NCBI GenBank assembly: GCA_051657245.1
Contig: JBOFKI010000057.1
Location: 1-39,981, forward strand
Reading direction: 5' to 3'
Origin: Alphaproteobacteria bacterium
GTDB taxonomy: Bacteria; Pseudomonadota; Alphaproteobacteria; Holosporales; JBOFFI01
DNA length: 39,981 nucleotides
The position numbers and the translations under genes were made by a program. Position 1 is the stretch's first letter. Each line of letters starts with the position of its first letter. Below the pieces are notes generated by a model. It ran no database searches. It was not told the DNA's origin and worked only from the letters and a program-made list of their open reading frames with translations. Shown here piece by piece: positions 32,445-33,006 of this stretch.

Positions 32445-33006
32445 AAGAGCGGCAGGGATGAGATATCCAAGCTATCATAGCATCAAATTCCGGATCAGAG
32501 GAGCGAAACGCAAAAGGCTTACGGGCGCAAAGGCCATGGATAGCTTTGTTTATGGAGAAAACTGCCGTATGGAACTTTGCAACACCTCGCACGTTCGCGC
32601 TTAAACTCCCCTTTCCGGACAGTAAACGTGAACGCCAGGCTTAATCGTCGCCTTCGTCAGCATCCTCCCAGAGCGTGCTTAAGGTCAACCAAAGGGCCAG
32701 CCCCAAGAAAAAGAAACAGTCACTCAACCCCAAACTGTCTCCTCCTTCCCTTGGGGGGAAGAAAAAGTGTCGAAGGCGTGAAAGTTTCCGTTGCGCCAGA
32801 AAAGAAAAATCGTTTAACATCTTGTTTAGCCTTAAATGACTTGTGTTGAGTCGTTAAAGGTTAGCGGCATTGGGGAGTTAGCGCTCCCTGGTGTCGCGTA
32901 TTTGCCCCTGAAACATTTGCTCCAGAGACGCGAAATAAGTTCAGCGGGTTTTATGCAAGAAAAGCAGGTGCCTCCAAGCTTTTCAAGCACTTACCAACCA
33001 AACTTA
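32445..33006 (-). ncRNA. Putative large structured ncRNA, copy 2 (about 560 nt, or about 690 nt if the left REP doublet is included)
   Basis: Begins about 7 nt downstream of the -10 box with a long 5' hairpin; several stems are supported by compatible substitutions versus copies 1 and 3. Confidence 0.6.

Follow-up and report, generated by a model that had tools for sequence, protein, structure and literature searches.

The DNA stretch considered here, hereafter the window, comprises 39,981 nucleotides (nt) and corresponds to contig JBOFKI010000057.1 (C57 in our numbering) of an uncultured alphaproteobacterium of the Holosporales (GTDB JBOFFI01, assembly GCA_051657245.1), whose genome is represented by 149 contigs, 1.37 Mb and 46% G+C. 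A repeat of some 560 base pairs (bp) is present three times in the window, with matching stretches at 14289-14552, 32576-32839 and 39718-39981. These copies had been recognized in a first-pass annotation, and all the strings that it quoted for copies 1 to 3 are found in our alignments. Copy 3 is incomplete, being ended by the window end, and copy 2 is the one reported throughout. The minus strand of the repeat contains a short open reading frame (ORF) between structured untranslated regions (UTRs), and the plus strand a candidate antisense gene that overlies the ribosome-binding site of this frame. On balance, we think it probable that the repeat unit, some 560 bp long, is a gene cassette complete in itself, made up of two overlapping transcription units in an organization like that of type I toxin-antitoxin systems.

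The core of the element is a protein-coding ORF under purifying selection, and not a purely structural or catalytic RNA. Indeed, among the 23 copies that cover the whole frame, drawn from four genomes and all lineages, 22 preserve it unbroken with a length of precisely 59 codons; the remaining one carries a 2-nt insertion, and contig ends truncate a further two copies. Insertions and deletions (indels), numerous in the UTRs, are lacking over the 180 nt of the ORF, and the other two frames contain one to six stops in every copy. Variable sites amount to 27, 18 and 35 at codon positions 1, 2 and 3, respectively, and the synonymous share of differing codons is 1513/4255 (36%), compared with 637/4155 and 724/4173 (15-17%) in the shifted frames. 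Furthermore, the ratio of nonsynonymous to synonymous change (dN/dS, NG86) is below 1 in each of the 21 pairs formed by seven lineage representatives out of the 22 intact sequences, the ratio of means being 0.40. Linker codons 26-33 (32721-32744) are exceptional in this respect, with dN 0.74 and dS 0.41, and could be subject either to diversifying selection or to relaxed constraint; dN/dS is about 0.3 for the rest of the ORF. The frame is also given as a coding sequence in the NCBI annotation, and we regard it as very probable that the element is the messenger RNA (mRNA) of a small protein, furnished with structured UTRs. The features of the cassette are collected in Table 1. A second small ORF of 20 codons, overlapping the first one (32601-32663), was considered and rejected: its length varies from 18 to 78 residues among copies and its AUG abuts a GGAGG.

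Table 1. Features of the cassette (copy 2) and positions of the two other copies in the window.
Feature	Position	Strand	Details
Whole unit	~33041 to 32485	-	promoter-like box, 190-nt 5' UTR, 59-codon ORF, 3' UTR hairpin, U-rich tail
Putative sense promoter	33041-33013	-	TTGATC (33041-33036), 17-nt spacer ending TGC, TAGATT (33018-33013)
P1, 5'-terminal hairpin	32936-33006	-	24 pairs; 101 G-U vs 2 A-C cells
P2 hairpin	32904-32929	-	9 pairs, 98.1% paired; 50 G-U vs 0 A-C cells
P3, P4	32897-32864, 32860-32830	-	Shine-Dalgarno-like UAAGG (32834-32830) in the 3' strand of P4, 9 nt before AUG
ORF, 59 codons + stop	32820-32641	-	MLNDFSFLAQRKLSRLRHFFFPPREGGDSLGLSDCFFFLGLALWLTLSTLWEDADEGDD; begins at invariant AAG-AUG-UUAAAC
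3' UTR	32485-32640	-	short hairpin, long irregular hairpin (32616-32492), U-rich tail
Putative antisense promoter	32791-32820	+	TTGCGC (32791-32796), 18-nt spacer, TAACAT (32815-32820)
Putative cis-antisense small RNA, ~77 nt	32827-32903	+	stem-loop I 32827-32863 (complementary to the Shine-Dalgarno region), stem-loop II 32864-32897, tail GUAUUU
Copy 1 of the cassette	14071-14725	-	ORF 14354-14533
Copy 3 of the cassette	39630-39981	-	ORF 39783-39962; cut inside the 5' UTR by the window end

Two parts of the frame, codons 1-7 (32800-32820) and 51-57 (32650-32670), show almost no synonymous change, a kind of change that is common elsewhere in the ORF. It was also observed that base pairs can form between the two (UCUUUUC with GGGAGGA), likewise in a divergent paralog which constitutes one further copy in the genome of the window (contig C95; G000:C95 ~37960-38500; L074 1360-1900), and this pairing could form a translation-limiting long-range helix. 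The first-pass annotation had taken the differences between copies in the core as preserving minus-strand base pairing; part of this pairing-preserving change is in fact codon variation. For the nested stems that it proposed in the middle of the element, the outer one is 96% compatible, but the inner one, 70% paired over 18 copies, holds only in the lineage of the window, and the G/A differences adduced for it fall in codons 26-29 of the conserved ORF. A proposed long-range helix inside the ORF is pair-compatible in 97.2% of alignment cells, but it shows one-sided wobble changes only and does not rise above shuffled controls; moreover, a local hairpin, likewise compatible, would use some of the same bases. 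More generally, the helices drawn within the ORF, be they the initial set or the alternative one, are more than 95% compatible with the exception of that inner stem, and neither set is above shuffles. A warning for annotation can be drawn from this case, namely that covariation-like differences within a repeat can hide a short ORF.

The encoded peptide follows a simple plan, in which a basic helix at the N-terminus is joined by a variable linker to a hydrophobic helix at the C-terminal end, with an acidic tail after it. Residues 35-51 are hydrophobic (Kyte-Doolittle 1.83), the net charge of the tail is -6, and helices are predicted by AlphaFold2 at residues 3-20 and 33-56, with a mean predicted local distance difference test score of 66.9, that is, with low to moderate confidence. 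The toxin gene of a type I system is a small hydrophobic ORF, usually of fewer than 60 codons; here we find 59 codons with a coding signature, a hydrophobic stretch and a predicted helix over it, and the peptide would presumably insert into the membrane and act as a toxin. Its relatives are few. A search among 5.8 billion proteins retrieved only nine proteins of 59 residues, four of them named by NCBI "hypothetical protein [Alphaproteobacteria bacterium]" and five unnamed, and a profile search of 1.84 billion representative proteins gave three matches, all of them unnamed small proteins, two of which are new distant relatives. Both keep the N- and C-terminal motifs; one of them, P0011, lacks the hydrophobic helix (Kyte-Doolittle 0.38). 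No longer homologs of the peptide were found in these searches, no match was obtained in NCBIfam and no usable one in a protein atlas, and Pfam returned only DUF6552 with an E-value of 0.15, below the cut-off.

Upstream of the ORF, the putative sense promoter, with 8 of 12 consensus positions, is kept in front of every lineage including the divergent paralog, and the sequence beyond it diverges. Transcription would start near 33012-33008 and yield a minus-strand mRNA of about 525 nt, with a 5' UTR of about 190 nt occupied by helices P1 to P4. In 18 copies from four genomes, 98.2% of the cells of these helices are paired and eight pairs have changed on both sides, a number reached in none of 500 shuffles; slid controls are paired in 38-58%. 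The long 5' hairpin described in the first-pass annotation is P1, and it is well borne out, with five double-change pairs (three in columns 7-20/71-84 and two in columns 23-35/54-66). The stem of P2, also described there, stands as well, but the copy-2 difference that had been quoted for it sits in the loop; the tip of P2 is variable, and in some lineages an extra hairpin is inserted in it. Read on the opposite strand, only 73% and 66% of the cells of P1 and P2 would pair. As for P4, its CCUU/AAGG pairing exists in 18 of 18 copies, and by this predicted pairing of UAAGG the ribosome-binding site would be sequestered. Lineage C111/G1_C128 and the divergent paralog show compensatory changes in P3 and P4, and on the sense strand both helices are made almost only of Watson-Crick pairs (0-1 G-U cells).

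At the other end, the 3' UTR is a probable terminator and stabilizer of the mRNA. TCCGGA boxes are located at 32489-32494 and 32614-32619, as claimed beforehand, and the pairing of this 3' domain, which had likewise been anticipated, proves to be a single hairpin of about 130 nt and 48 pairs, four of them with double changes, together with many G-U/A-U/G-C swaps (RNAalifold, 18 type-A 3' ends). Two orthologous copies, G3_C36 and G2_C167, have CUCCCCUUUUUUU at their end, with U7 directly after the hairpin, and other lineages present a different 3' domain after a shared GUCCGGAAAGGGGAG. In P1, P2 and the 3' hairpin, G-U cells far outnumber A-C cells, and therefore the minus strand is the sense, folded strand in these parts. 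The general proposal that selection acts on a folded minus-strand molecule thus holds for these three structures, but not for the core, which is a coding ORF, nor for the Shine-Dalgarno region, which favors the plus strand. The minus strand is not singled out by the folding energy of the whole RNA either: compared with shuffles, z-scores are -3.06 for the minus and -2.77 for the plus strand, so alike that the strand is undecided by this measure. When the whole window was compared with Rfam at gathering thresholds, only a tRNA located elsewhere passed, and for the cassette region nothing significant appeared at E-values up to 10, the best alignments being WsnRNA46, on a flanking repeat (37 vs 65.3 bits), and FinP (22.8 vs 45 bits).

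Between P2 and the start codon, the asymmetry between strands is reversed, which implies two overlapping transcripts and not one. When 70-nt segments were slid along the element, the antisense strand won within mRNA positions ~91-205 in 16 of 16 copies; outside this interval the sense strand is more stable in nearly all segments, with the exception of the last two at the 3' end, which cut the long 3' hairpin and also favor antisense. The plus strand of 32824-32910 folds into two uninterrupted stem-loops with -40.7 kcal/mol (z -6.07, none of 200 shuffles as good), versus -19.7 kcal/mol for the same bases on the sense strand (z -1.73, 10 of 200 shuffles as good). The antisense strand is the more stable one in all 24 copies, by a mean of 21.06 kcal/mol, and contains 4-8 G-U pairs per copy, compared with 0-1 on the sense strand. 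In an alignment of 25 sequences which includes the divergent paralog, this two-hairpin structure is 97.6% paired; its covariation score was reached by none of 500 shuffles and its count of double changes by 12 of 500. Stem-loop II (13 pairs, four of them changed on both sides) is particularly clear, since it is 100% paired on the plus strand and 76.3% on the minus strand, and 77 G-U cells of the former are A-C mismatches on the latter.

These hairpins are preceded by a promoter-like box whose -10 element, TAACAT, is the complement of the start codon and codon 2, its last three bases being the complement of the start codon itself. Across copies the box has the form TTGC(G/A)(C/G), 18 nt, TAACAT; no variation is seen among 22 unique copies in TTGC, in the -10 element or in the first 15 of the 18 spacer bases, and the three spacer bases beside the -35 element, complementary to the variable codon 8, do vary. 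Downstream of the hairpins come GUAUUU, GUUUUU or GCAAUUU. The divergent paralog presents the same two antisense hairpins (z -6.20) after a box of the form TTGCAT, 18-nt spacer, TATAAC; it also keeps the sense promoter box and, as said, P3 and P4, and its ORF, which starts with MVIDDFSF, is devoid of the hydrophobic helix. Taken as an antisense gene such as type I systems possess, the locus shows the structure, the strand asymmetry, the promoter-like box and the U tail, with a negative consensus scan, and the RNA must be called putative. Judging from these signals, the box would act as a promoter, and the small RNA would be made and would repress the mRNA. Genes for RNase III and Hfq are present in the genome.

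A further trait of the cassette is the distribution of its variation. The type-A copies of the genome of the window (11 in the whole-RNA profile, nine in a comparison of a 137-nt stretch) are otherwise 93-97% identical, and most of what distinguishes them falls within the linker codons and the apical loops of the hairpins P2, P3 and P4. The pairwise difference per site is 0.422 in the P3/P4 loops vs 0.015 in the rest of the 137-nt stretch, i.e., about 28 times higher, and 22 distinct loop combinations exist among 24 copies. It was also noticed that the same versions of the P3/P4 loops recur in non-orthologous copies, in different lineages and species and in differing combinations, a pattern that points to gene conversion or recombination between copies. 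In a cis-antisense pair the loops stay complementary whatever mutation they undergo; loop diversification would make paralogous pairs specific. We advance only tentatively, as a possibility that we would not bet on, that the genus holds mutually orthogonal toxin-antitoxin cassettes, whose recognition loops would be under diversifying selection and reshuffled between copies and species. If that were true, each copy would be an independent addiction unit without rescue by its paralogs, and the family would amount to a collection, provided by nature, of kissing-loop pairs without cross-reaction, which spreads in a reduced genome of 1.2-1.5 Mb.

Put together, these elements suggest the following mode of action. 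The minus-strand mRNA would fold into P1 and P2, then into P3 and P4, the latter hiding the Shine-Dalgarno-like UAAGG, and would continue through the ORF to the 3' hairpin. The plus-strand RNA of about 77 nt would start just upstream of the start codon, cross the Shine-Dalgarno sequence, P4 and P3 in antisense, and end in a 13-bp hairpin with its U tail. The first contact between both molecules would be made by the apical loops of P3 and P4, which are complementary, and would grow into a duplex that blocks ribosome binding; this duplex may in turn be cleaved by RNase III. Since the loop sequence changes from copy to copy, a given small RNA would be directed chiefly at the mRNA of its own cassette. 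The cassette would thus represent a type I toxin-antitoxin-like pair of a family not described before, a reading toward which we lean.

The distribution of the element is narrow. By BLASTN, 20 matching pieces were found in the genome of the window, which on visual inspection reduce to some 16 loci or fragments, often located at contig ends; the element is present in the three other genomes of the genus (79-94% identity), and 37 other genomes of the order and class gave no match. A covariance model, R1, built on the central 137 nt, matches 13, 5, 2 and 6 times in the four congeneric genomes and not once in 18 other genomes of the order. A six-frame protein profile run on 401 genomes of the class found the genus itself, plus one chance-level match with two stops, and when 185,579 species, each represented by one genome, were scanned for a motif, 11 stretches came up, all in three metagenome-assembled genomes titled Alphaproteobacteria bacterium. 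Two motif scans of metagenome contigs of the Joint Genome Institute (JGI) gave no match, and neither did the cassette in plasmid and phage collections. At least five loci are orthologous between species by their flanks and neighbor genes, which argues for an old paralog family with recent expansion in the genome of the window. Overall, the cassettes are best read from these comparisons as a multi-copy family restricted to one genus.

With respect to the neighborhood, the proteins that flank 19 loci belong to unrelated housekeeping clusters, and for this reason the idea of a leader or guide RNA for a neighboring gene was dropped. Only leucine-rich-repeat proteins recur, in one lineage and beside the window copy; copy 2 and the copies of the C61 lineage have a gene of this kind immediately upstream, and tandem 78-nt repeats occur inside such genes at 7807-8196 and 33413-33720. 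In copy 1, a 130-nt hairpin-forming repeat stands directly after the stop codon (~14225-14353), a site that it occupies in several copies and also in another species, with short inverted ends and a TAA/TTAA duplication at the insertion site; the same repeat is found at G000:C10:3360-3499 and G000:C38:1341-1469, and occurs alone elsewhere in the genome. Most cassette copies are flanked, moreover, by a separate palindromic repeat of ~110-150 nt with arms GTCATYCCCGC...GCGGGRATC, which is not part of the unit, lies in the window at 32296-32458 and 33118-33233, and exists at dozens of sites genome-wide. It is this repeat that aligns below threshold with WsnRNA46 (Wolbachia sRNA 46), with an E-value of 9e-06.

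Several facts weigh against a toxin-antitoxin interpretation or temper the figures on which it is built. The peptide matches no known toxin family in Pfam, NCBIfam and the protein atlas, with Hok/Gef, Ldr, Fst, TisB and Ibs covered, and type I toxins do not usually combine a C-terminal helix with an acidic tail. The hydrophobic helix is lacking in P0011 and in the C95 paralog, so this part of the peptide is not always kept. The invariance of codons 1-7 at synonymous sites indicates a constraint at the RNA or DNA level, which could inflate the conservation of the N-terminal part of the protein. A scan for consensus promoters and terminators listed no site at its thresholds on either strand; the sense promoter escapes it because it has 8 of 12 positions only, and the transcript ends are consequently our own inferences. 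The antisense U tail comprises only 3-5 U. Among sequencing runs, 20 contain part of the stretch (18 marked "DNA?" and two of unknown kind), none marked as RNA and none with half or more of the words of the stretch. Finally, all sequences compared are related paralogs and orthologs of one genus, so that the counts are not independent and the figures based on shuffles overstate independence.

The alternative that best survives, although we consider it unlikely, is an ordinary family of non-toxic small membrane-protein genes with structured UTRs, whose plus-strand hairpins would be some other DNA or RNA element, for instance a terminator for opposing transcription or a protein-binding site, and whose copies would have been spread along with the palindromic repeats beside them. 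This view accords with the signs of coding and of purifying selection, with the lack of homology to toxins, with the empty promoter scan, and with the location of copies at contig ends beside an abundant palindrome. However, the hairpins keep a constant place in the cassette, whatever the neighboring genes and their orientation, they are preceded by an invariant promoter-like box and followed by a U tail, they cover the Shine-Dalgarno sequence exactly, and their loops are hypervariable. A non-autonomous mobile element, whose RNA or DNA structure would serve transposition while the ORF and antisense hairpins are simply carried along, seems improbable: the 13 model matches in a 1.37-Mb genome, the near-identity of copies, their contig-end positions and the nested 130-nt repeat with its short duplication would suit it, but no match exists in plasmid or phage collections, the neighbor-gene survey found no transposase adjoining any copy, loci are orthologous across species, and terminal inverted repeats or target duplications were not seen by eye in alignments of the cassette ends, on which no dedicated test was made. 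Very improbable, finally, is a large non-coding structured RNA, ribozyme-like or of a big ornate class, with an incidental open frame, since in spite of the extensive conserved structure, the long invariant stretches that include synonymous sites of codons 1-7 and 51-57, and the two relatives devoid of the hydrophobic helix, the frame keeps its length without the indels that abound in the UTRs, third positions and synonymous changes are in excess with a dN/dS of 0.4, helices inside the ORF show no covariation above shuffles, and no Rfam family matches even at E-values up to 10.

Several type I toxin families are narrowly distributed, and Alphaproteobacteria are not mentioned in the available part of the account that reports it (PMC5367252). 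If the type I-like interpretation is right, a new family in an uncultured alphaproteobacterial genus of small genomes would widen the known range of these systems. Furthermore, the opposite G-U/A-C asymmetries of adjacent helices make such a cassette recognizable from DNA alone, and the hypervariability of the loops, set against near-identical stems, offers a test case for the evolution of specificity in antisense pairs.

The hok/sok system of plasmid R1 and its chromosomal homologs combine a highly structured toxin mRNA, endowed with long-range pairing, with an antisense RNA over the translation initiation region; they form multi-copy chromosomal families, and Hok has an N-terminal helix. The cassette resembles them in its structured toxin-like mRNA, in the predicted antisense over the initiation region and in being a multi-copy family, and differs in that an overlapping leader ORF like mok was not found in it and the peptide has no Pfam Hok_Gef match. 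With FinP of F-like plasmids (Rfam RF00107), the putative small RNA shares two stem-loops, a short U tail and an antisense location relative to a 5' UTR with its ribosome-binding site. Indeed, FinP is the only Rfam alignment to 32827-32903 on the plus strand (22.8 bits against a gathering threshold of 45, E-value 0.09), but with a score below threshold the likeness is one of shape only; moreover, the target would be a small peptide gene and not traJ, and no ProQ/FinO-domain gene was found in the genome. The size of ~500-600 nt and the many conserved helices recall OLE, ROOL, GOLLD and self-splicing introns, from which the element is separated by the absence of an Rfam match at the thresholds tried and by the conserved ORF at its center.

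The closest described parallel, judged on the available part of the account in PMC5416894, is aapA1/IsoA1 of Helicobacter pylori, where the toxin mRNA, folded and translationally inert, has as counterpart an antisense RNA transcribed from the other strand, a kissing-loop duplex is initiated by two stem-loops, and RNase III decay follows. Compared with what is described there, the cassette presents no sequence similarity, its peptide has 59 residues and not 30, with a C-terminal helix and an acidic tail, and its mRNA would be much longer, at about 525 nt, of which the 5' and 3' UTRs take up 190 and 155 nt, respectively; activation by 3' processing is not predicted for it, and its host is an uncultured alphaproteobacterium. 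Nevertheless, the predicted architecture matches that of aapA1/IsoA1 in its main lines: a gene for a small, here predicted, membrane peptide, an mRNA whose folding would hide the ribosome-binding site, two stem-loops able to meet loop to loop, an RNase III gene in the same genome, and several chromosomal copies.

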